Positions 1-21,661 of a stretch of DNA of 46,333 bases are shown piece by piece (positions within the stretch are counted from its first letter, which is position 1; each line of letters opens with the position of its first letter). The position numbers and the translations under genes are program-made. The DNA lies in contig OZ246411.1 in assembly GCA_965231055.1 (NCBI GenBank), positions 1-46,333 of the forward strand, in the 5' to 3' direction. This DNA is from an uncultured Candidatus Saccharibacteria bacterium (GTDB lineage: Bacteria > Patescibacteriota > CALEFQ01 > G965231055). The notes under the pieces were generated by a model. The model was given only the letters and a program-made list of their open reading frames with translations, made no database searches and was not told where the DNA came from.

Positions 1-235
1 GTTGTGAAAAGTAACTCTGCGAAGCACAACGTCGACGTCTGGATCCCCGATCAAGTTGGGGATGACGACGAATGAATACCGTCCTTGATAAAACAACGCA
101 AACCACTTACTACTGTCATGCTGAATTCATTTCAGCATCTATTACGACATCGAAAACTCCAATTTAGACCCTGAAACAAGTTCAGGGTGACAATATTGGG
201 TGAATTGGAAACGAGAGTATGGCAATAGTACGTAA
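1..235. other. Non-coding, hairpin-rich segment at the window edge, downstream of argS. Function unknown.
   Basis: No ORF of 60 aa or more. Four stem-loops are readable by eye: GTTGTG..CACAAC (1-30), ATCCCC-gatcaagtt-GGGGAT (about 43-63), ATGCTGAA-ttcat-TTCAGCAT (about 118-138) and CCCTGAA-acaag-TTCAGGG (about 169-187). GC looks higher than in neighbouring DNA. Confidence 0.3.
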
Positions 236-291
236 ACTTAAAACCTAATCCCTAATACTTCTAAAACCTATCACCCAGAACCTAGTCGCTA
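236..291 (-). repeat. Degenerate TAG-containing heptad array that begins at the argS stop codon
   Basis: The minus strand reads TAG cgac TAGGTtc tgggtga TAGGTtt TAGaagt at TAGgg at TAGGTtt TAAG. On the plus strand, CTA occurs at 245, 252, 261, 268, 282 and 289, giving spacings of 7, 9, 7, 14 and 7. Confidence 0.55.
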
Positions 292-2149: not shown

Positions 2150-3619
2150 TTATATATCTATATCTTCCGGATCTATATCTTTTGCTTTATTTGCAGAATA
2201 AGTTTCAAGCCCTAGAGATGATTTGGGTCTTTGTTTGTTTAGTCCTCCGCCAAGATCCATAGATCCCTTGGAAATATATCCCCTCGGCACACCTGAGGAG
2301 ACACTATTTTGTTCAGAAACTGGAGCTTCCGTAGATTGTTGTCCTTGAGATTTGAAATCATACAAATCGCCCTTTAGACTCTTTTCATTACCAACTATAT
2401 TGGGGTCTTTCATTACAACTCCTTTTCTTTCTCTTAGCGCCCTTCTTACTATATCTGCTCCTTGCTGAGATTTTTTACTCATATTACCTCCATCCTTTTT
2501 GGCTACTCTGAAAAATACCATCATTACAATAATCACCACCACAACTGCTACTCCTAAATATATTATGAATTTATTTGATAAAATACTCCCGAGCGCACTA
2601 TCACTGCCTTGAGCATCTTTCGTGCTAGATATAGGAGCTACATCTTCTACATTGATTGAAAAACTATACAAACCAAATTTTATTTTGGAAGAAGTTATGG
2701 GAGAAATATTGAAGTAAAGATCCTTGTCTTCGTACGAGGTCACATCTATTGAAACCTCCTGTCCTTCAGCCACGGAAGCTTTCTCAGAAATTACGGACCC
2801 TGTCGCATCCATAACCATTATTTTTAGCCCCAAAGTGGAAGCTGGCTTGATAGTGAAAATTGCTTTTGAATTGGTAGTTGCTGAAAATTTGAATGTATCA
2901 GCATTGTCCGTGGAACAATATTTATTAGTTCCGCATTTATTTACGCCTATATAATTTTGATCATACGAACCTTTTGATATCACAACTGGTCCCGAAGAAA
3001 TAGATTCACCTGCATCTTTTTGGGAATCCGCATCTGTCAGATCTTTCAAACTTGCCGTGAATGAATACGAAGTAACTTTTTCTTTAAGCTCAGAGGTTAC
3101 AGCCACTTTCATATAAACCATTTTGCCTGCAGTAGCAGAAGTCTCCTGACCTGGATAATAGAAAGTGGAAATTTCTTGTTTGCCATCGGCTAGATTTTGT
3201 CCTTGCGAAAGCATATTGCCAAGCTCGTCATATAGAGTGAAAGCCAAATAATTCATTTCATCTGAATTCTCAGTCTCTGAAAGCGCACTACCAATAATAG
3301 AAAGCTGATAGCCAGGATTTACAGTCGCTACTTTGTAAAAAACGCTACTACCAAATTCTACGGCATCACCGGAAACTTTTTGATCCAATGAAATAGATTT
3401 AGCTCCAGTAAATTCACTTGGCGTACTTGTGGATGGCGCCAAATCCTCATTTTCATCAGCTTCAAGCTCAACTCCATTTTCATCAACAGCTTTTGCTTCT
3501 GTATCTTTGGTGGTGGGATCTGTCCCCTCAACCAACATAGCAAAAGCATTGCCATTGAAGGCAAAAAACATAGATAAAACGAACATCGCCGAAACTAGCT
3601 TTAAACTTGTTTTTTTCAT
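2150..3619 (-). CDS. Secreted, single-pass membrane-anchored hypothetical protein with two PPC-like beta-sandwich segments
   Basis: The ORF runs 2150..3664. The second Met (at 3619) gives a canonical signal peptide, MKKTSLKLVSAMFVLSMFFAFNGNAFA. There is a TM helix (IIYLGVAVVVVIIVMMVFF) and a polar cytoplasmic tail. Two segments resemble the pre-peptidase C-terminal domain pattern (..FYKVATVNPGYQLSIIG.., ..DTFKFSATTNSKAIFTIKP..LKIMVMDATG). The start could instead be 3664. Confidence 0.6.
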   Translation of the reverse strand: MKKTSLKLVSAMFVLSMFFAFNGNAFAMLVEGTDPTTKDTEAKAVDENGVELEADENEDLAPSTSTPSEFTGAKSISLDQKVSGDAVEFGSSVFYKVATVNPGYQLSIIGSALSETENSDEMNYLAFTLYDELGNMLSQGQNLADGKQEISTFYYPGQETSATAGKMVYMKVAVTSELKEKVTSYSFTASLKDLTDADSQKDAGESISSGPVVISKGSYDQNYIGVNKCGTNKYCSTDNADTFKFSATTNSKAIFTIKPASTLGLKIMVMDATGSVISEKASVAEGQEVSIDVTSYEDKDLYFNISPITSSKIKFGLYSFSINVEDVAPISSTKDAQGSDSALGSILSNKFIIYLGVAVVVVIIVMMVFFRVAKKDGGNMSKKSQQGADIVRRALRERKGVVMKDPNIVGNEKSLKGDLYDFKSQGQQSTEAPVSEQNSVSSGVPRGYISKGSMDLGGGLNKQRPKSSLGLETYSANKAKDIDPEDIDI

Positions 3620-3685
3620 TTTTTTTGTTTTAGTATTTGTTTTTATTGTACAATAAACTGACAATATAGTAAATTAATAAGTATT

Positions 3686-3727
3686 CAGTGTTGAGTTTTC
3701 AGCGATCAGTGTTCAACAAACAATATT
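3686..3727 (+). repeat. Heptanucleotide tandem array, forward arm (CAGTGnn type)
   Basis: Six consecutive 7-mers: cagtgtt gagtttt cagcgat cagtgtt caacaaa caatatt. Confidence 0.6.
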
Positions 3728-3739
3728 ATTCATTGAATG

Positions 3740-3795
3740 CTGAAAACTTATGACTAATAGCTGACTGCTTAATACTGACCACTGATCACTAAATA
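3740..3795 (+). repeat. Heptanucleotide tandem array, inverted arm (CTnAnnn type)
   Basis: Eight consecutive 7-mers all start with CT: ctgaaaa cttatga ctaatag ctgactg cttaata ctgacca ctgatca ctaaata. Their reverse complement gives AGnnnnn heptads similar to the 3686-3727 arm. For example, AGTTTTC appears in both. Confidence 0.6.
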
Positions 3796-3805
3796 TCAAA
3801 AACCT

Positions 3806-4267
3806 GTGTCAATCATAGCCACAAACAAAACAGCGAGAAGAGATTATTTTCTGCAAGAAAGATTTGAAGCAGGAATTGTTTTGAGTGGACAAGAAGTAAA
3901 ATCAGCCAAAAAAGGAAATGCCAATCTAAAAGGAAGTTATGTAGTAATAAGAATAAGCAAACATGGTCGCCCAGAAGCCAACATAATAAACTTGCATATT
4001 TCTCCTTATGACAAAGCGGGAGAATTGAAAAAATATGATCCCACCAGAACCAGAAGGTTGCTACTCAAAAAAAGTGAGATGCAAGCACTGCTCGGAAAAA
4101 AATCAGCTCAAGGTTTGACAATTGTTCCAACGCAAATATATACTAAGAGGTCTTTGATAAAAGTTGAAGTAGCGACAGCTCGAGGAAAGAAAAAAACTGA
4201 TAAACGCGAAGATATAAAACGCAGAGAATCAAAACGCAACATTGCCAGATCATTGAAAAGGCATTAG
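3806..4267 (+). CDS. smpB: SsrA-binding protein SmpB
   Basis: A 153-aa ORF with a GTG start. The N-terminus (IATNKTARRDYFLQERFEAGIVLSGQEVKS..KGSYV) and the basic C-terminal tail are typical of SmpB. It lies directly upstream of the tmRNA gene. Confidence 0.93.
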   Translation: MSIIATNKTARRDYFLQERFEAGIVLSGQEVKSAKKGNANLKGSYVVIRISKHGRPEANIINLHISPYDKAGELKKYDPTRTRRLLLKKSEMQALLGKKSAQGLTIVPTQIYTKRSLIKVEVATARGKKKTDKREDIKRRESKRNIARSLKRH

Positions 4268-4302
4268 GTTGTAGGTGCTAGGTGTTAGGTTTTAGGTATT
4301 AG
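4265..4302 (+). repeat. TAGGTnn heptad array (5.4 copies) starting with the smpB stop codon
   Basis: Sequence: TAGGTtg TAGGTgc TAGGTgt TAGGTtt TAGGTat TAG. The period is exactly 7, so TAG falls in all three frames in turn. Confidence 0.75.
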
Positions 4303-4340
4303 ACGACGGTAAATCAAGAATTATCCTTGCCATTCATGAG

Positions 4341-4378
4341 CCTAGAACCTAAAACCTGAAAGCTAAAACCTAAAACCT
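4341..4378 (+). repeat. Inverted copy of the TAGGTnn heptad array (ACCTAaa type), ending 5 nt before ssrA
   Basis: Sequence: CCTAgaACCTAaaACCTgaaagCTAaaACCTAaaACCT, whose reverse complement is ..TAGGTtt TAGGTtt TAG.. It can pair with 4265-4302, including an 11-bp perfect run (AGGTTTTAGGT with ACCTAAAACCT). Confidence 0.7.
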
Positions 4379-4383
4379 CGCGT

Positions 4384-4777
4384 GGGGATGACAGGCATCG
4401 ATAGTTGTGGAGCGATTGGTATTCGTCATTAAGAGCTATAAGTCACTCTTGTAAAAAACTGACTTATAATCATAAGTGCAAAATCACTTGTAAGCAAAGT
4501 CAAGGCTGCTTTTAGCATGCCGGTCTTTGCACCTGTTGTTGCCTAAAAACCAACAACCATCGCCCCTGCTTGGCTAGAAGCGGGATCGGCGGTGTCATTA
4601 CCTAGCCTCTATCTCGAGCATTTCTTCCGGCTCTTGATGAAACTTTTAGGAAGATTGAAATTTGCATGTTTAGTTCCCTTTTAGTGCAAGTTTTGAAAAA
4701 ACAAAGGGTTCTAGATGACGTAAAAGTACCACATCAAACCCTTCTAGACGGGGGTTCAATTCCCCCCATCTCCACCA
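4384..4777 (+). ncRNA. ssrA: tmRNA (SsrA), one-piece, with CCA encoded
   Basis: The 5' GGGGATG pairs with the 3' CATCTCC-ACCA acceptor stem, including the G3:U wobble. The T-arm is GGGGG-TTCAATT-CCCCC. The candidate tag ORF runs from GCA at 4478 to TAA at 4544-4546 and encodes AKSLVSKVKAAFSMPVFAPVVA. The stop codon sits in the loop of the hairpin GTTGTTG-cctaaaaac-CAACAAC. The gene is adjacent to smpB. Confidence 0.9.
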
Positions 4778-4817: not shown

Positions 4818-4845
4818 AAAACCGCTCATGCTTGGCGGTTTTTTA
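4818..4845 (+). terminator. Intrinsic terminator after ssrA (usable in both directions)
   Basis: Stem AAAACCGC / GCGGTTTT with a 9-nt loop, followed by a T-run. Confidence 0.7.
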
Positions 4846-4853
4846 AAACAATA

Positions 4854-7800
4854 TTATCTAGTCTTTTTCATGCGAACAACAATAAAACCAATCGACCCAG
4901 CTAAAACGATAGAAATAATGACGAAAACCCAGATCCAATTCTTTCTGGTTGCAGAATTGTCCAATCCAGAATCTAAAACGTCAGAGCTATGAGATGATGA
5001 TTTCAAATCAACCCCAGCTCCATCAGAATCTATGTTTTCTTGCTCATCCCCCAAACTTGCCGAAAAATAATCTCTTGAATTATTAGAATTATTCGAGTGG
5101 TAATTTTCTTCACTTGAATCATCGATAGTATCCTCATGATCTTCTTCCATGGAAGAAGTAGTGGCATCTATAACTACCGGATCAGTTTCTACACCATCTC
5201 CGTTTCTATATCTCACTGAATAAGTGTATTCTGTACTATTTTTCAAACCATCATCCTGCCAAAAATTATCATTAATCCACCCCGAATTATTTCCATTAGT
5301 AGTATTCTCAAAATAGTATCCTGACAATCCATCGTCATCGTTTACAAATCTTTCTACTGATAGCAGAATATCATCTGAATCAATTGATGCAGAAAAATGA
5401 GTTGGACTTTCAACTAGAGTATAAACGGAATCAGACGTCTCGGAAGAATCGCCAAAACCCATATCGCTTCTATGCGCCTTTACCGAAACTGAATACTCTG
5501 TATTTGGTGAAAGATCTTCGTCAGTCCAAATTAAATTGGATCCCGAAGAGGATTTGGAATTTTGTGGATACAAATCACTTACACCCAAGGCTGCGCCTCC
5601 CCCATCATTATCATAATCAACACTATATGAGTCCTCTATTTCTGAATTATCAATCCATTTCCAAGTAATAGAGTTTGGAGAGTTTACAGTAGGGGTGTCG
5701 ATAGTGGGAGTATTTAAACTATTTGTACCCAATACCGTAAGGCTTACTGCATCCGAAGAAGATGATAGACCAGTAGAATCAGTGGCTGTAAAAACAACCT
5801 CCTCGGTACCAGTCCACTCTGCAGGCTGAGCGAAAGAAACACGATTATCACTATCAATTGTGACATCTATATACTCATTGTCATCTGTTGAGGCGGTGTA
5901 GGTTACAGCTTGATTTCTAGCTGGTATTGCTAGATTATTTTTTTCAATAAAGTAATCGTCTAAATCGAAAGATTCCAAATTATCATCCCCCTTTGACCAA
6001 CTTTGATCAAGAATCATTCCACCAGAATATAATAAATACGCGGCTCCTGCGCTAAAAACACCTTGCGGATCACTATAATCAGCACCAACAGCCACATCAT
6101 CCAGACCATCTCCATCTACATCAGAGAGGGAAGAAACCGATACCCCAAAGATGTCACCGCGACGTTCCCCTGTGTATCTTATTAACTCATTTCCACTACC
6201 AGAAGAAAGAATCGACACATAGCCCGAACCAAACTCTCCCCTAGCCCCAATCACAACATCATCCAAGCCATCATTGTCGATATCTGAGATTGAAGAGACG
6301 GACTCACCAAAACGATCCGCTGATTCCACTCCACTATACTGACGAATAAAATTTCCCGAGGAAGAATACAAATCTACAATCCCAACAGACACTAAGTTAT
6401 CCTCAACATCAGTGTAAGCAGGAGATGAAATAATTATGTCATCAAGCCCGTCACCATCTAGGTCTGTTATCGGAACAACGCTAGAACCAAAAGCGCCATT
6501 AGCGCCCGCTCCATCATAACGTTCAATTTGATTACCAGTTCCAGAAGAGAAAATAAAAGCTGATCCAGCGTAGGATACTCCGCCAGGGCTTGCCATATAG
6601 GCCCCAATTATAACGTCTTCCAAACCATCTCCATCTATATCTGAAATAGAAGAGACTGACGATCCTAAACCTTCCATTGCGCCACCGCTAAATTGTCTTA
6701 TAATATCACCGGAAGCTGAGGAATAAATATAAGCAGAGCCAGCATTGGAATTTGCAGAAGCAGCTCCTACTAGAATATCATCCAAGTCATCTCCATCAAT
6801 GTCTGAGATTGAACCAATTGCTTTACCGAAATTACTAAAAGCGCCCGCGGGACCGTCGTATCTTCTTATAAGCTCACCACTCCCAGATGAATACAGATAA
6901 ACAGAACCAGTATAATCTCCACCCATACTGGAATACTGGGAACCGATCAGAACATCGTCCAGACCATCTCCGTCTACATCTGAAATCGAAGAAACAGAGC
7001 CTCCAAAATAAATAGCACCAGCATCTCCCACATATTGCCGTAAAAGATCTCCCGTCTTAGAAGAATATATATATGCCTTATTAGAACCACTTTCTCCAAC
7101 TAGTATATCCTGAAATCCGTCACCATCTATATCTGATATAGAAGAGATCGCTGAACCAAATCTCCCCGAGGCAGTAGCTCCTTCATATTTTTTAAAACTA
7201 CCTGCTTCAGGAGCAGAATCGGAATCTAGGGGGTTGAAATTGTTTAACTCTTCGTATTCATCATCCCAACCATCATTGTCAGTGTCTGACTCATAGGGAT
7301 TTGTGTAATTTGTAAATAACTCGTCATAATCACTTACGCCATCATCGTCATAGTCTAGATCACCATCCTGGCTAATTCCCAGTGTGTCGATATTATTGGG
7401 AAGATTCAAGATAACAAAAGATCCTTGTTCGGGAGATGATATTACAGCGGGCTTACCAGAATTCTTAAAAGGCAGAATATTAAAATTATATATATCGTTT
7501 CCAAAAAAAGACCTGGCAGTTGCGGGCACTTGAGTTCCTGCATATAGGTTGTATCCACCAATATTATTTTCAGAATTGCTTCTGTCGATAGTGAAACTCT
7601 CTGTAGCTGTGGGTGTATATACGCCGGTACTTTCATATCCGAGAGTTGCTTGATTCTGAGTAGTATACCACCAAACATGATAATATATATTCGAAATCTC
7701 ATTGTTTTGAGAATAGGTTCCATTTTCGTCAAAAAAGAATTGTAACCATCCCCCGCAGTGCCTAGTCTCAGCAGAAACAGGAGCAGTTCTCGACAAAACC

Positions 7801-8414
7801 CCCAAATCGTCTCCCGATCCTGATGTATTATTGGCCTGATAATGCGTCTGCGCAGATGATCTTAGATAGTAGAGCCCATCGATATTGGTTTCTTCGTGTG
7901 AACTAAAAATCTGAAAATAGACACTGGATGTTGGACCATTTAGAACAGTATTCGCTGAGTTTTTTGTAGTAACTATAACTTGATAATTGTTTGCCAATGC
8001 GGAATTATTGACTATATTTCCTAAAACAATTGTCTTTAAGCCGGCAGCAGAAGATGTTCCAGAAGTTCTAGTTATCGTAATCACCTGTCCAGCCACTGTT
8101 AATGTTTTATTGCCATCAAATCCCGTCCAAGAACCAAAAGAAGCTCCGGACACATTGAATCCTGCAGGAAACTCAAGGGTCACCTTTCCCGTATTGGCAA
8201 TACTAGCTGTCGTCTTGAAAGTTATTGTATAACTTGATGCATTACCAGCAGTAACATCCGAGGGAGTGGCGGTTACTCGCGTAAGAGCTGCGGCCGCCGA
8301 AACATGCAATGGAAAAACAAAAAAACCAATATTATAAAAAACTATTGAAAAAATAATAATCAAAGAAAAAAACTTTTTGATTTTAGTTTTCGTTCTCAAA
8401 GATTTTAGCATCAC
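4854..8414 (-). CDS. Large cell-surface protein: N-terminal signal/anchor, seven FG-GAP repeats (beta-propeller), acidic Ca-binding-like segment, FN3-like modules and a C-terminal TM anchor
   Basis: A 1186-aa ORF. Seven copies of the motif FGxSVSSISDIDGDGLDDVxIGA lie at aa 418-780 (about nt 6015-7202). There is a DxDxDG-rich stretch (DGDLDYDDDGVSDYDE..DTDNDGWDDEYE). FN3-like segments follow (..NSITWKWIDNS.., ..TEYSVSVKAH.., ..STEYTYSVRYRNG). The C-terminal helix is WIWVFVIISIVLAGSIGFIVV. Confidence 0.8.
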   Translation of the reverse strand: MMLKSLRTKTKIKKFFSLIIIFSIVFYNIGFFVFPLHVSAAAALTRVTATPSDVTAGNASSYTITFKTTASIANTGKVTLEFPAGFNVSGASFGSWTGFDGNKTLTVAGQVITITRTSGTSSAAGLKTIVLGNIVNNSALANNYQVIVTTKNSANTVLNGPTSSVYFQIFSSHEETNIDGLYYLRSSAQTHYQANNTSGSGDDLGVLSRTAPVSAETRHCGGWLQFFFDENGTYSQNNEISNIYYHVWWYTTQNQATLGYESTGVYTPTATESFTIDRSNSENNIGGYNLYAGTQVPATARSFFGNDIYNFNILPFKNSGKPAVISSPEQGSFVILNLPNNIDTLGISQDGDLDYDDDGVSDYDELFTNYTNPYESDTDNDGWDDEYEELNNFNPLDSDSAPEAGSFKKYEGATASGRFGSAISSISDIDGDGFQDILVGESGSNKAYIYSSKTGDLLRQYVGDAGAIYFGGSVSSISDVDGDGLDDVLIGSQYSSMGGDYTGSVYLYSSGSGELIRRYDGPAGAFSNFGKAIGSISDIDGDDLDDILVGAASANSNAGSAYIYSSASGDIIRQFSGGAMEGLGSSVSSISDIDGDGLEDVIIGAYMASPGGVSYAGSAFIFSSGTGNQIERYDGAGANGAFGSSVVPITDLDGDGLDDIIISSPAYTDVEDNLVSVGIVDLYSSSGNFIRQYSGVESADRFGESVSSISDIDNDGLDDVVIGARGEFGSGYVSILSSGSGNELIRYTGERRGDIFGVSVSSLSDVDGDGLDDVAVGADYSDPQGVFSAGAAYLLYSGGMILDQSWSKGDDNLESFDLDDYFIEKNNLAIPARNQAVTYTASTDDNEYIDVTIDSDNRVSFAQPAEWTGTEEVVFTATDSTGLSSSSDAVSLTVLGTNSLNTPTIDTPTVNSPNSITWKWIDNSEIEDSYSVDYDNDGGGAALGVSDLYPQNSKSSSGSNLIWTDEDLSPNTEYSVSVKAHRSDMGFGDSSETSDSVYTLVESPTHFSASIDSDDILLSVERFVNDDDGLSGYYFENTTNGNNSGWINDNFWQDDGLKNSTEYTYSVRYRNGDGVETDPVVIDATTSSMEEDHEDTIDDSSEENYHSNNSNNSRDYFSASLGDEQENIDSDGAGVDLKSSSHSSDVLDSGLDNSATRKNWIWVFVIISIVLAGSIGFIVVRMKKTR

Positions 8415-17377: not shown

Positions 17378-17458
17378 CACCTAGTCACTAATGCATCCAA
17401 TCCCCCCCTATTCCCTCTAACCGAAACCTATAACCTGATCTCTGGCCGCTAGTACCTA
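17378..17458 (-). repeat. Degenerate TAG/AGGT heptad-like array starting at the ferredoxin stop codon
   Basis: The minus strand reads TAGGTac TAGcggc cagagatc AGGTta TAGGTtt cggt TAGaggg aa TAGggggggattggatgcat TAGtgac TAGGTga. Several spacings are exactly 7. Confidence 0.5.
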
Positions 17459-18802: not shown

Positions 18803-21661
18803 ATGCAAAAATACGAACCCAAAATAGTTGAGGAAAAGTGGCAAAAAATCTGGGAAGAACAAAAGGCTTTTAAAGCCAACGACAAAGACAAAAAACCCAA
18901 ATACTATGCCTTGGTTGAATTTCCTTATCCCTCAGGGGAAGGACTTCACTGTGGTCACCCAAGATCCTATACAGCGCTTGATGTAGTAGCAAGAAAAAGA
19001 CGCATGCAAGGCTACAATGTTTTGTATCCCATGGGATTTGACGCGTTTGGCCTTCCTGCGGAAAACTACGCTATAAAAACCAAATCCAACCCCAAGGATG
19101 TAGTAAAAAAGAATATAGAAAATTTTACCCGCCAGATGAAATCTATAGGATTTTCTTTTGATTGGGATAGAGTCGTAAATACTACTGAACCAGAATATTA
19201 TAAATGGACTCAGTGGATCTTTTTGAAACTTTTTGAAAAAGGACTCGCTTACCAAAAACAAATGCCAATCAATTGGTGCCCAAAATGCAAAATAGGTTTA
19301 GCCAACGAAGAAGCAATTGATGGTAAATGCGAAAGATGCGGAACAGAAGTAGAAAAAAAGGACATGAAACAATGGATGCTTGCTATCACCAAGTACGCCG
19401 ATAGGCTTATTGATGATCTAGATGATTTGGATTATCTAGAAAAAATAAAACTGCAACAAAAAAACTGGATCGGACGAAGTGAGGGCACTATCGCCAAATT
19501 CAAAATCAAAACACAGCAATCAGCCGAAAGCCAAAAGCCAAAAGCCAAAAGCTCATTAATTGAAATTTTTACCACAAGAATAGACACGATTTTTGGAGTT
19601 ACCTATATCGTACTAGCTCCCGAACATGAACTAGTAAGACAAATCACGACACCTGAACACCAAAAAGAAGTAGATAAATATATCAAGCAGACGAATTCCA
19701 AAACAGATATCCAAAGGAAGGATCTTGAAAAAGAAAAAACCGGAGTATTTACCGGCAGCTATGCAATAAACCCGGTTAACAACAAAGAGGTGCCAATTTG
19801 GATCGCTGACTATGTCGTAGCATCATACGGATCCGGAGCAGTAATGGCAGTCCCAGCGCATGATGAACGCGATTATGCATTCGCTAAAAAATATAATTTA
19901 CCAATAGAATACGTTATAGAACCAGTCACTGGAAAACCAAGAGAAAAAGAAGAATACAGAAAAAGCGTTGTAGTTGTCGTAGAAAATCCAAAGAATGGCA
20001 AGGTGCTTACTTTTAATTGGGGCAAAGAGCTTGGAGGATATTTAATCTTGGGAGGAGGAATGGAAACAAATGAAGACCCAATAGAAGCTGCTAAAAGAGA
20101 AATACTTGAGGAAACTGGATATAAAAATGTAGAATTCGTAGCGAAATCAGAAACTATTCACCATCACTACAGAGCGCACTCAAAAAATGTGAATAGATAT
20201 ATTGATGCGGTAGGCCTACACTTCAGACTGAAAGATGAATCCAAAGAAAATACAAAGCTCGAGGATAGCGAAAAAGGAAAATTCAAACTTGAATGGAAGG
20301 AAAAAAATGAAGTAGCTAATCTCATAGAAGACGAACTACATCATTATGTTTTTGCTAGATTTATTCTTGGAAACGCATTTACTGGGGATGGCATTTTGAT
20401 AGGTTCCGAAGATTTTTCAGGAATGGATTCCGAAAAAGCAAGAGAAGAAATTACAAAATGGTTAAATAAAAAGAATTTAGGAGATAAAAAAGTAGAATAC
20501 AGCCTGAGAGACTGGGTATTTTCAAGACAACACTATTGGGGAGAGCCAATACCAATAATACATTGTAAGAAATGTGGAATAGTGCCAGTGCCAGAAAAAG
20601 AACTTCCAATAGAACTTCCTTTTGTAGAGAATTACGAGCCAACAAACACCGGAGAATCCCCTCTTGCCAAAATCACAGACTGGGTAAATACTACTTGCCC
20701 GAAATGTGGCGCAAAGGCAAAAAGAGAAACAGACACAATGCCAAACTGGGCTGGATCAAGCTGGTATTTCATAAGATACATAGATCCCAAAAACGACAAA
20801 GAAATAGCCGACAAAAAGAAACTAAAACATTGGCTCCCTATTGACTGGTACAATGGCGGAATGGAACACACCACGCTACACCTTCTCTACTCTAGATTTT
20901 GGTACAAATTTCTCTATGATATAGGGGTTGTTCCCACTAAGGAACCTTATCAGAAGCGAACCTCTCATGGGATGATACTCGCAGAAGATGGACAAAAAAT
21001 GTCCAAATCCAGGGGTAATGTTATAAATCCTGACGACATAATTGAGAAGTTTGGAGCAGACACGCTCAGGATGTATGAAATGTTTATGGGACCCTTTTCC
21101 GAAGCGGTGGCTTGGAATACTGATAGTATTAAAGGGGTTAGAAAATTCTTGGATAGAGTTTGGAATAATTTTTCCGAATTACCAGGCAAAGAATCTGATA
21201 AAGAAATAGAGGTAAAACTACACCAAACAATAAAGAAAATCACAGAAGACATAGAGGCAATGCGATTCAATACTTGCATAAGCGCGTTAATGGAATTGCT
21301 AAATTTCATAGAAAACAAACCCACAACCAAAGAACAAGCCGAAATCTTCACCAAACTTCTATATCCATTTGCGCCACACATATCAGAAGAGCTATGGGAA
21401 AAACTTGGGCACACGCAAACAATCACCAATGAAGCTTGGCCAATTTTTGATGAATCAAAAATCAAAACCTCAACGGTCAAAATTGGAGTTCAGATCATGG
21501 GTAAAGTAAGGGGAACAATAGAGCTTTCTCAAGAAGCAACAGAAAAAGAGGCAGTAAAACTTGCAAAAGAAAATCCCAACATACAAAAACACCTCAGAGA
21601 TAAAAAAATTATCAAAACTATTTACGTTCCAGGAAAAATTCTAAACTTTGTGGCCAAATAA
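18803..21661 (+). CDS. leuS: Leucine--tRNA ligase with an in-frame Nudix-domain insertion
   Basis: A 952-aa ORF with HIGH as HCGHPRS and KMSKS as QKMSKSRGN. The CP1 editing motifs TTRIDTIFG and GSGAVMAVPAHDERD are present. A C-terminal domain is present. An extra segment at aa 378-525 carries the Nudix box GGMETNEDPIEAAKREILEETGY. Confidence 0.95.
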   Translation: MQKYEPKIVEEKWQKIWEEQKAFKANDKDKKPKYYALVEFPYPSGEGLHCGHPRSYTALDVVARKRRMQGYNVLYPMGFDAFGLPAENYAIKTKSNPKDVVKKNIENFTRQMKSIGFSFDWDRVVNTTEPEYYKWTQWIFLKLFEKGLAYQKQMPINWCPKCKIGLANEEAIDGKCERCGTEVEKKDMKQWMLAITKYADRLIDDLDDLDYLEKIKLQQKNWIGRSEGTIAKFKIKTQQSAESQKPKAKSSLIEIFTTRIDTIFGVTYIVLAPEHELVRQITTPEHQKEVDKYIKQTNSKTDIQRKDLEKEKTGVFTGSYAINPVNNKEVPIWIADYVVASYGSGAVMAVPAHDERDYAFAKKYNLPIEYVIEPVTGKPREKEEYRKSVVVVVENPKNGKVLTFNWGKELGGYLILGGGMETNEDPIEAAKREILEETGYKNVEFVAKSETIHHHYRAHSKNVNRYIDAVGLHFRLKDESKENTKLEDSEKGKFKLEWKEKNEVANLIEDELHHYVFARFILGNAFTGDGILIGSEDFSGMDSEKAREEITKWLNKKNLGDKKVEYSLRDWVFSRQHYWGEPIPIIHCKKCGIVPVPEKELPIELPFVENYEPTNTGESPLAKITDWVNTTCPKCGAKAKRETDTMPNWAGSSWYFIRYIDPKNDKEIADKKKLKHWLPIDWYNGGMEHTTLHLLYSRFWYKFLYDIGVVPTKEPYQKRTSHGMILAEDGQKMSKSRGNVINPDDIIEKFGADTLRMYEMFMGPFSEAVAWNTDSIKGVRKFLDRVWNNFSELPGKESDKEIEVKLHQTIKKITEDIEAMRFNTCISALMELLNFIENKPTTKEQAEIFTKLLYPFAPHISEELWEKLGHTQTITNEAWPIFDESKIKTSTVKIGVQIMGKVRGTIELSQEATEKEAVKLAKENPNIQKHLRDKKIIKTIYVPGKILNFVAK

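Follow-up and report, generated by a model that had tools for sequence, protein, structure and literature searches.

A labile inverted pair of heptanucleotide repeats between smpB and the tmRNA gene of a Patescibacteria genome and its possible role as a leader hairpin

The element described here lies in contig OZ246411.1 of an uncultured Candidatus Saccharibacteria bacterium, whose 46,333 nt (G+C content, 37%) were analysed as a whole and are called the window below. In this element, two runs of a 7-base repeat in opposite orientation occupy the gap between smpB and ssrA, the gene of the transfer-messenger RNA (tmRNA), and together they can fold into a long hairpin. The nearest named relatives of this SmpB were found in Patescibacteria metagenome-assembled genomes, with at most 58% identity. 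The locus comprises the following features:

3806 to 4267, plus strand: smpB, 153 aa, GTG start and TAG stop (4265-4267), with PF01668 homologues (best E = 1.9e-86)
4115 to 4144, plus strand: sigma-70-type promoter-like motif inside smpB, TTGACA-18-TATACT, 11 of 12 consensus positions
4259 to 4302, plus strand: left arm, AGGCATT and then five perfect TAGGTnn units plus a closing TAG, phased with the smpB stop codon
4303 to 4340, plus strand: loop, 38 nt, non-repetitive
4341 to 4378, minus strand: right arm, 5.4 CCTAAAA-type heptads, equivalent to TAGGT-type units on the minus strand, one unit with a 1-nt insertion
4379 to 4383, plus strand: linker CGCGT, 5 unpaired nt between the hairpin base and tmRNA +1, the expected RNase P site
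4384 to 4777, plus strand: tmRNA gene ssrA, from ARAGORN and Rfam (104 bits), tag peptide AKSLVSKVKAAFSMPVFAPVVA
4818 to 4844, no strand assigned: terminator-like stem and T-tract after ssrA, AAAACCGC-9 nt-GCGGTTTTTT, read from the sequence

From 4265 to 4302 the left arm reads TAGGTTG TAGGTGC TAGGTGT TAGGTTT TAGGTAT TAG, with the variation confined to positions 6 and 7 of the unit and all five TAGGT cores perfect. The degenerate unit AGGCATT, which precedes it from 4259, is made of the last two smpB codons and the first base of the stop (AGG CAT T). The right arm (4341-4378) reads CCTAGAA CCTAAAA CCTGAAAG CTAAAA CCTAAAA CCT. The original prediction, made by reading the letters of the window, had described five TAGGTnn units and a TAG running from the smpB stop, a 38-nt spacer and a reverse-complement arm ending 5 nt before the first G of the tmRNA, and all of these coordinates were reproduced. 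The two arms, 37 nt long, convergent and 39 nt apart, were 78% complementary, close to the three quarters proposed. The perfect 11-bp run was also real, since AGGTTTTAGGT (4287-4297) is matched by an exact complement at 4368-4378 and by a second one at 4347-4357. This pair was the longest inverted repeat of the window. Folding of 4255-4390 gave -41.9 kcal/mol (z = -3.45) for RNA and -19.2 kcal/mol (z = -3.26) for DNA, in line with the long hairpin that had been predicted at the junction.

Tandem Repeats Finder (TRF) assigned a period of 7 to both arrays, with 5.6 and 5.4 copies. When the 46 kb were scanned for self-matches at lags 4 to 12 in 28-nt windows, an autocorrelation check proposed earlier, high scores appeared at lag 7 only. 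A relaxed pattern of three TAGGTNN units (up to three mismatches) matched the window 14 times, against 0.71 ± 0.82 times in shuffled sequences, and none of 100 shuffles reached that number. These matches formed only three arrays at two loci within the 46 kb, and a genome-wide TAGGT family was not supported. Mobile hairpin elements such as REP/REPIN or MITE would come as many near-identical copies per genome, with terminal inverted repeats or target-site duplication; in the 46 kb of the window a second copy of the hairpin was sought and none was found, the other arrays there differing in sequence. Logan contigs from four runs reproduced positions 3600-4776 or further without any difference at a word depth of 29-138, and unit number was invariant within these runs, which carry the window's own sequence. 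Because four separate runs agreed at this depth, the arrays are not an assembly artefact, a concern that had been raised when they were first noticed.

The stem is followed by CGCGUGGGG, with no U-tract, and a terminator scan between smpB and ssrA (4260-4384) returned no terminator-like site, in agreement with the earlier view that this is not a classic terminator. Compact canonical terminators end most genes of the window. Transcripts of smpB-ssrA probably end at the stem and T-tract at 4818-4844, a site that the convergent gene shares; it was absent from the pattern-scan output because its loop measures 9 nt.

Four tandem TAGGTNN units were found in more than 120 GTDB genome stretches, including cyanobacteria, Bacteroidota, Patescibacteria, Fibrobacter and Omnitrophota, with about one match expected by chance according to our arithmetic. 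About 20 of these arrays had an inverted partner and about 10 provided the stop of a long open reading frame (ORF). In viral contigs, 100 arrays carried TAGGT, while the permuted cores TGTAG and GATGT accounted for 65 and 116 arrays, respectively. We therefore rejected TAGGT as a special cross-phylum element, permuted cores being about as common, and regard it as one flavour of a generic heptad repeat. A general tie of the arrays to tRNA or tmRNA genes was also rejected, as 2 out of 129 arrays lay within 300 nt of one. The smpB/ssrA element belongs to a known kind of repeat, the heptanucleotide simple-sequence repeats (SSRs), here arranged as an inverted pair, and is neither a terminator nor a sequence-specific TAGGT element. 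What is new is its phasing with a stop codon, its turnover in the same gap, the clade-wide split of the spacer and the promoter-like motif inside smpB.

Comparison with close relatives revealed extensive turnover at this site. In the relative L001, which has a 95% identical SmpB and an identical tmRNA 5′ end, the spacer measured 107 nt (119 nt in the window) and read TAGAGGCAC TAGAAGAAT TAGAGGAAT from the TAG stop, an array with a period of 9 (TAGAGGnnn). The codons before the stop, AAGAGGTAT, make one more period-9 unit, and the complementary period-9 arm ended 4-5 nt before the tmRNA. The L001 arms were 34 nt long and 79% complementary, and their fold reached -30.7 kcal/mol (z = -3.1). In the window, TAG rotates through all three frames within 21 nt of the left arm, as the original prediction had pointed out; since the period of L001 is 9, all TAGs of its array fall in one frame and the three-frame arrangement is not a conserved trait. 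Three further runs gave partial sequences, their spacers being known from junction letters and 30-nt loose ends. The spacer was about 40 nt shorter in run X10, where the TAGGT units were kept and 4284-4340 was replaced by 17 nt; run X11 carried a different ACCT-type right arm beside an identical tmRNA; and 100 nt separated smpB and ssrA in run X7. Two near-identical loci, L183 (663-790) and L198 (706-835), had spacers that differed by exactly two heptads, ATTCAAA ATTCCAA, and this pair is a direct example of unit-number change. Because L001, X10, X11 and X7 hold different spacers next to conserved flanks, the smpB-ssrA element is hypervariable. The differences in unit number, and even in period, at one site among close relatives bear out the earlier suggestion of a slipped-strand product whose copy number varies.

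To place this element within the clade, a profile search was used, which yielded 80 Patescibacteria smpB loci (L123-L202) with 45-56% identity; the tmRNA 5′ motif directly followed smpB in 56 of them, and spacer counts were taken from these. Spacers of -9 to +26 nt were present at 28 junctions, spacers of 38-43 nt at four and spacers of at least 50 nt at 24. About 14 of the 24 long spacers combined a significant fold (z <= -3.4) with lag-7 periodicity, and in L127, L128, L132 and L166 the hairpin began at the stop codon and left 5-9 nt free ahead of the tmRNA. The repeat unit varied by lineage (TAATTnG, TAAAGnT, TAAnTGn, TAAATCC, AATTTTC, TCTAATT). Where smpB ended in TAA, the units were often phased with TAA, as in the first four of these. 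Both arm orders occurred among related hairpins. Tandem-repeat periods in these loci were dominated by 7 (31 arrays), 14 (18 arrays) and 21 (6 arrays), with at most 10 for any other. The earlier comparison with the STRR (short tandemly repeated repetitive) heptamers of cyanobacteria was therefore sound as regards repeat class, period 7 being dominant in the clade, but did not extend to a TAGGT family defined by its sequence throughout the genome. On the SmpB tree, lineages with long and short spacers were intermixed, which points to repeated gain and loss of long spacers.

Two further observations concern the ends of these genes. In seven lineages (L148, L165, L170, L172, L181, L185 and L190) the smpB stop lay within the first bases of the tmRNA (GGGGnTGA...), the spacer being -9 to -5 nt, and therefore an RNase P cut of the co-transcript would yield a non-stop smpB mRNA, which could serve as feedback via trans-translation. 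Inverted heptad hairpins (ATTTCAG / AAATCTG and similar) were also seen after stable-RNA-like 3′ ends in L132 (2437-2505), L124 (2923-2992) and L128 (2453-2487). Those of L132 and L128 directly followed the tmRNA 3′ end (...CCATCTCCAC), that of L124 was located about 500 nt past the tmRNA, after ...ACTCCCACC, and none of the three was followed by a U-tract.

The promoter-like motif inside smpB, TTGACA-18-TATACT, was identical in L001 (2494-2523) and overlapped the conserved SmpB peptide GLTxxPxxxYT. Codon choice at the motif differed from the background of the same genes: the Leu codon was TTG in 59 out of 60 loci (background, 21%), the first Thr codon was ACA in 45 out of 60 (26%), the Tyr codon was TAT in 60 out of 60 (72%) and the second Thr codon was ACT in 60 out of 60 (25%). 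Judged from its sequence and this constraint, the motif is probably the ssrA promoter. With a promoter embedded in smpB, ssrA would be expressible across a gap of a few nt. Literature searches returned no account of an ssrA promoter inside smpB, nor of candidate phyla radiation bacteria with heptad hairpins.

The smpB-ssrA gap is not the only place in the window where heptads were found:

3692 to 3792, plus strand: another inverted pair of heptad arrays, 5′ of smpB, which L001 shares (2060-2176)
3692 to 3715 and 3737 to 3792: arms of this upstream pair, nnnTCAG x3 and nnACTRA x8 (TAACTGA-like), respectively
236 to 291, minus strand: array running from the argS TAG stop, TAGCGAC TAGGTTC TGGGTGA TAGGTTT TAGAAGT ...
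17379 to 17458, minus strand: array running from the TAG that ends a gene for a ferredoxin of 65 aa, TAGGTAC TAGCGGC CAGAGAT CAGGTTA TAGGTTT ...

The nnACTRA arm, which has 8 units in the window (8-9 across the window and L001), stopped 13 nt before the GTG start of smpB, where no Shine-Dalgarno sequence was present. An inverted partner was sought for the argS array and only a 7-bp match was obtained, with no clear partner; the ferredoxin-gene array, degenerate and recognised by eye, was also without a clear inverted partner. A test for enrichment of arrays after TAG stops had been proposed for the genome; on the scale of the window, TAGGT-type heptads followed 3 out of 9 TAG-ending genes and none of about 33 genes ending in TAA or TGA.

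With moderate confidence, and on the strength of the sequence comparisons, we favour the explanation that the element is a labile leader hairpin born by slippage, which may cap the 3′ end of the smpB mRNA after RNase P cleavage. A locally born, fast-evolving pair of heptad arrays would fill a gap that was ancestrally a few nt long. The left arm would have been built by tandem duplication and slippage that set out from the final smpB codons and the stop, which would be why its unit starts at, and contains, the smpB stop triplet; an inverted copy would have given the right arm, and both arms would afterwards have gained and lost units independently. The element would be co-transcribed with ssrA, from the smpB promoter and from the embedded sigma-70-like promoter about 120 nt before the stop, a single RNA thus holding both arms as the pre-tmRNA 5′ leader and the smpB 3′ untranslated region. 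Since the promoter-like motif lies inside smpB, both arms would be included in the pre-tmRNA leader whichever promoter fires. According to the computed fold, this RNA would form an imperfect hairpin of about 37 bp, with the stop codon at one side and the RNase P site 5 nt away at the other. An RNase P cut at 4383/4384 would release the tmRNA without the hairpin, and the smpB message would then end in the hairpin and a 5-nt tail. The hairpin would stop 3′-to-5′ exonucleases that erode the smpB stop codon, and would keep the leader from disturbing the folding of the tRNA-like domain. Two sludge metatranscriptomes, which held contigs of the tmRNA body only (4394-4605 and 4423-4689) and nothing of the spacer, count in favour of the leader position. 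Array density also counts in favour of this explanation, with 5.0 arrays/kb in the smpB-ssrA spacer versus 0.85/kb in the other non-ORF DNA of the same loci (about 6-fold, Poisson P ~1e-7).

Several observations weigh against such a role. At half of the related junctions the spacer is all but absent, which makes the hairpin dispensable. Mismatches in the stem coincide with the variable nn of the unit, and most of them are G-A instead of G-U, so pairing is not optimised for RNA. Many phyla have comparable heptad hairpins at other places between genes, unlinked to tRNA or tmRNA genes. The inverted duplication that would give the second arm is assumed, not observed. A search for RNA runs carrying 4150-4395 listed none. 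Finally, the comparison of array densities is partly circular because arrays form most of the spacer length.

The same facts can be read as those of a neutral by-product, that is, slippage junk tolerated in a discarded leader, with hairpin potential only a consequence of the inverted arrays and no effect on fitness. We regard this as possible, although somewhat unlikely. It would agree with the patchy distribution of long and short spacers on the SmpB tree, with the many junctions that have no spacer, with the swapping of sequence and even period between 95%-identical relatives, with stem mismatches that are uncompensated and with the commonness of arrays of any core of the same composition. 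However, it leaves aside the roughly 6-fold density of arrays at this site relative to other non-coding DNA of the same loci and the recurrence, in many lineages, of a two-arm layout bounded in the same way although its sequence has turned over completely. Moreover, the genome is small, with 844 kb as the longest contig on record, and gene-dense, and most other gene ends of the window carry compact canonical terminators. A role in translation, in which TAG heptads would halt ribosomes in any frame and the stem would block them before the pre-tmRNA is unfolded, seems improbable. The three TAG frames within 21 nt, the phasing of arrays with stop codons in the window and several relatives, and an upstream array with TGA or TAA in most units would fit it, but every TAG of the period-9 array of L001 is in one frame, about half of the related hairpins (L127, L129, L141, L166, L179) open with the C-rich arm, which is poor in stop triplets, AT-rich heptads give stop triplets often by chance, and most pre-tmRNA would probably start at the embedded promoter and remain untranslated.

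On duplex DNA, heptads in direct and inverted orientation could form an operator- or centromere-like binding array, as the omega ribbon-helix-helix repressor of inc18 plasmids binds 7-bp heptads. The layout is compatible with arrays of the omega type: five perfect cores vary at positions 6-7 only, for which we calculated a random expectation of about (2/7)^5 = 0.002, the two arrays converge, and three heptads correspond arithmetically to two helical turns. The motif, however, differs between loci of one genome (nnACTRA versus TAGGTnn) and between near-identical strains at one locus, the TAGGT core is no commoner than permuted cores and no candidate binding protein was identified, and we give this explanation little credence. 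An unconventional smpB terminator, with ssrA served by a promoter of its own in the loop or right arm, TTGCCA (4327-4332), 17 nt and TAAAAC (4350-4355), is very unlikely. It could draw on the position-matched TTGTTA-17-TGAAAC of L001, at an equal 28-nt distance from tmRNA +1, and on the heptad hairpins that relatives carry just after the tmRNA 3′ end, where a terminator is expected. In contrast, no U-tract follows the stem, the scan found no terminator- or promoter-like site there, neither candidate -10 hexamer ends in the conserved T, and most other transcription units of the window end in canonical terminators. The loop promoter was not supported by the scan, and the near-consensus motif with constrained synonymous sites inside smpB makes it superfluous. 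A leader-trailer stalk like that of rRNA operons was rejected as well, since both arms are located 5′ of the tmRNA and the trailer has no complement. An assembly or sequencing artefact can practically be dismissed: tandem repeats and palindromes are generally prone to mis-assembly, but the four runs were identical and homologous but different arrays were present in independent samples.

If the slippage-born leader hairpin that we favour were carried one step further, the smpB-ssrA junction of Patescibacteria would be a selected RNA module, anchored on the stop codon and rebuilt by slippage, that caps the smpB message after RNase P cleavage and averts a non-stop mRNA, while spacer-less lineages, in which the smpB stop directly adjoins or overlaps the tmRNA, may use that very erosion as SmpB feedback. 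We put this forward only as a speculation that is rather more likely to be wrong than right. If it were true, the embedded promoter-like motif would belong to this compact operon design as well. Among the long simple repeats of prokaryotes, heptads are the commonest. Here an inverted heptad pair is precisely placed, with a stop codon on one side, an expected RNase P site on the other and predictable transcript ends, and natural variants in near-identical strains and repeated origin across a clade make it a testable system. Such a system addresses whether repeat hairpins act on RNA, through 3′-end protection and leader insulation, or are tolerated slippage products. The embedded promoter-like motif and the smpB stops inside the tmRNA bear on the layout of trans-translation genes in ultra-small genomes.

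Among known structures, the element recalls the 3′-terminal stem-loops and repetitive extragenic palindromic (REP)-type hairpins that stabilise bacterial mRNAs by blocking 3′-to-5′ exonucleases. The proposed effect, exerted by a stable stem at the end of the message, would be the same. Nevertheless, REP elements are sequence-conserved, multi-copy and GC-rich, whereas the smpB/ssrA stem has a unique sequence, is AT-rich and consists of tandem units; unlike REP-type hairpins, it would be exposed by RNase P cleavage and not by termination. The STRR motifs CCCCAGT, TTGGTCA and CAACAGT occur in high copy in heterocystous cyanobacteria. STRR heptamers, which are cited as having been reported for Calothrix PCC 7601 (PMC4692102), are also tandem heptanucleotide arrays in non-coding DNA, and cyanobacteria hold TAGGTNN arrays as well. 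However, neither an STRR sequence nor a cyanobacterial lineage applies here, where TAGGTnn forms the unit, the host is Patescibacteria-like and only three arrays at two loci in 46 kb fit the relaxed pattern.

The nearest described system is the (GGGANTN)n inverted pairs of Xanthomonas. In that genus, heterogeneous heptamers, (GGGAATC)n / (GGGANTN)n, form about 186 arrays per genome, 70-75 of them inverted pairs; they usually have about 4 units and lie between genes, at a mean distance of about 28 nt from the end of the ORF that precedes them, and related species do not keep them at the same genes (Rehm et al. 2015, PMC4692102). Both systems combine a conserved core with variable positions in a 7-nt unit, often as two convergent arrays capable of forming a stem-loop, and the smpB/ssrA arrays indeed lie on opposite strands, convergent and close together. 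In contrast to the G-tracts of Xanthomonas, the TAGGT units carry GG only and so have no G-quadruplex potential. The present arrays also differ in their Patescibacteria host, in beginning on the stop codon itself, in lying inside the leader of a stable RNA and in recurring at one gene junction across a clade. Among long SSRs with units of 5-11 nt, heptanucleotides are the most abundant prokaryotic class (Mrazek et al. 2007, as summarised in PMC4679880). In that summary the survey concerns abundance, with inverted pairs, stop-codon phasing and an ssrA association playing no part. The smpB/ssrA arrays share with long SSRs head-to-tail 7-nt units beyond chance and a unit number and sequence that vary among close relatives at the gap; slippage is the accepted mechanism, and period 7 and its multiples are dominant here too. 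Direct TAACTGA repeats are found in marine Beggiatoaceae, Cyanobacteria and Bacteroidetes, mostly upstream of start codons, and only one indirect TAACTGA repeat was reported in BOGUAY (MacGregor 2015, PMC4679880). These are likewise short, intergenic sets of heptamers with stop triplets, and the separate nnACTRA x8 array upstream of smpB (3737-3792) resembles them in sequence and position. The smpB/ssrA arrays differ from them in having TAGGTnn units, in following a stop codon instead of preceding a start and in forming an inverted pair.

Minor observations were made elsewhere in the window. The 3′ flank of ssrA differs between the window, where 4854-8414 (minus strand) encodes a 1186-aa FG-GAP/fibronectin-III protein, and L001, where a free-standing NUDIX gene lies 3′ of the tmRNA (L001 3140-3816); the comparison of the two sequences indicates an insertion or deletion at this flank. 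The leucyl-tRNA synthetase (LeuRS) ORF of the window (18803-21661) contains a NUDIX domain at residues 385-507, directly after the editing domain. Inside this ORF, which is an essential coding sequence, an AGCCAAA heptad is repeated 4.4 times (19522-19552), and the gain or loss of one unit would change the reading frame. A cluster of short hairpins at 30-200, 3′ of argS, included GGATCCCCGATCAAGTTGGGGATGAC, GTCATGCTGAATTCATTTCAGCATC and GACCCTGAAACAAGTTCAGGGTGAC, each followed by GAC or ATC.

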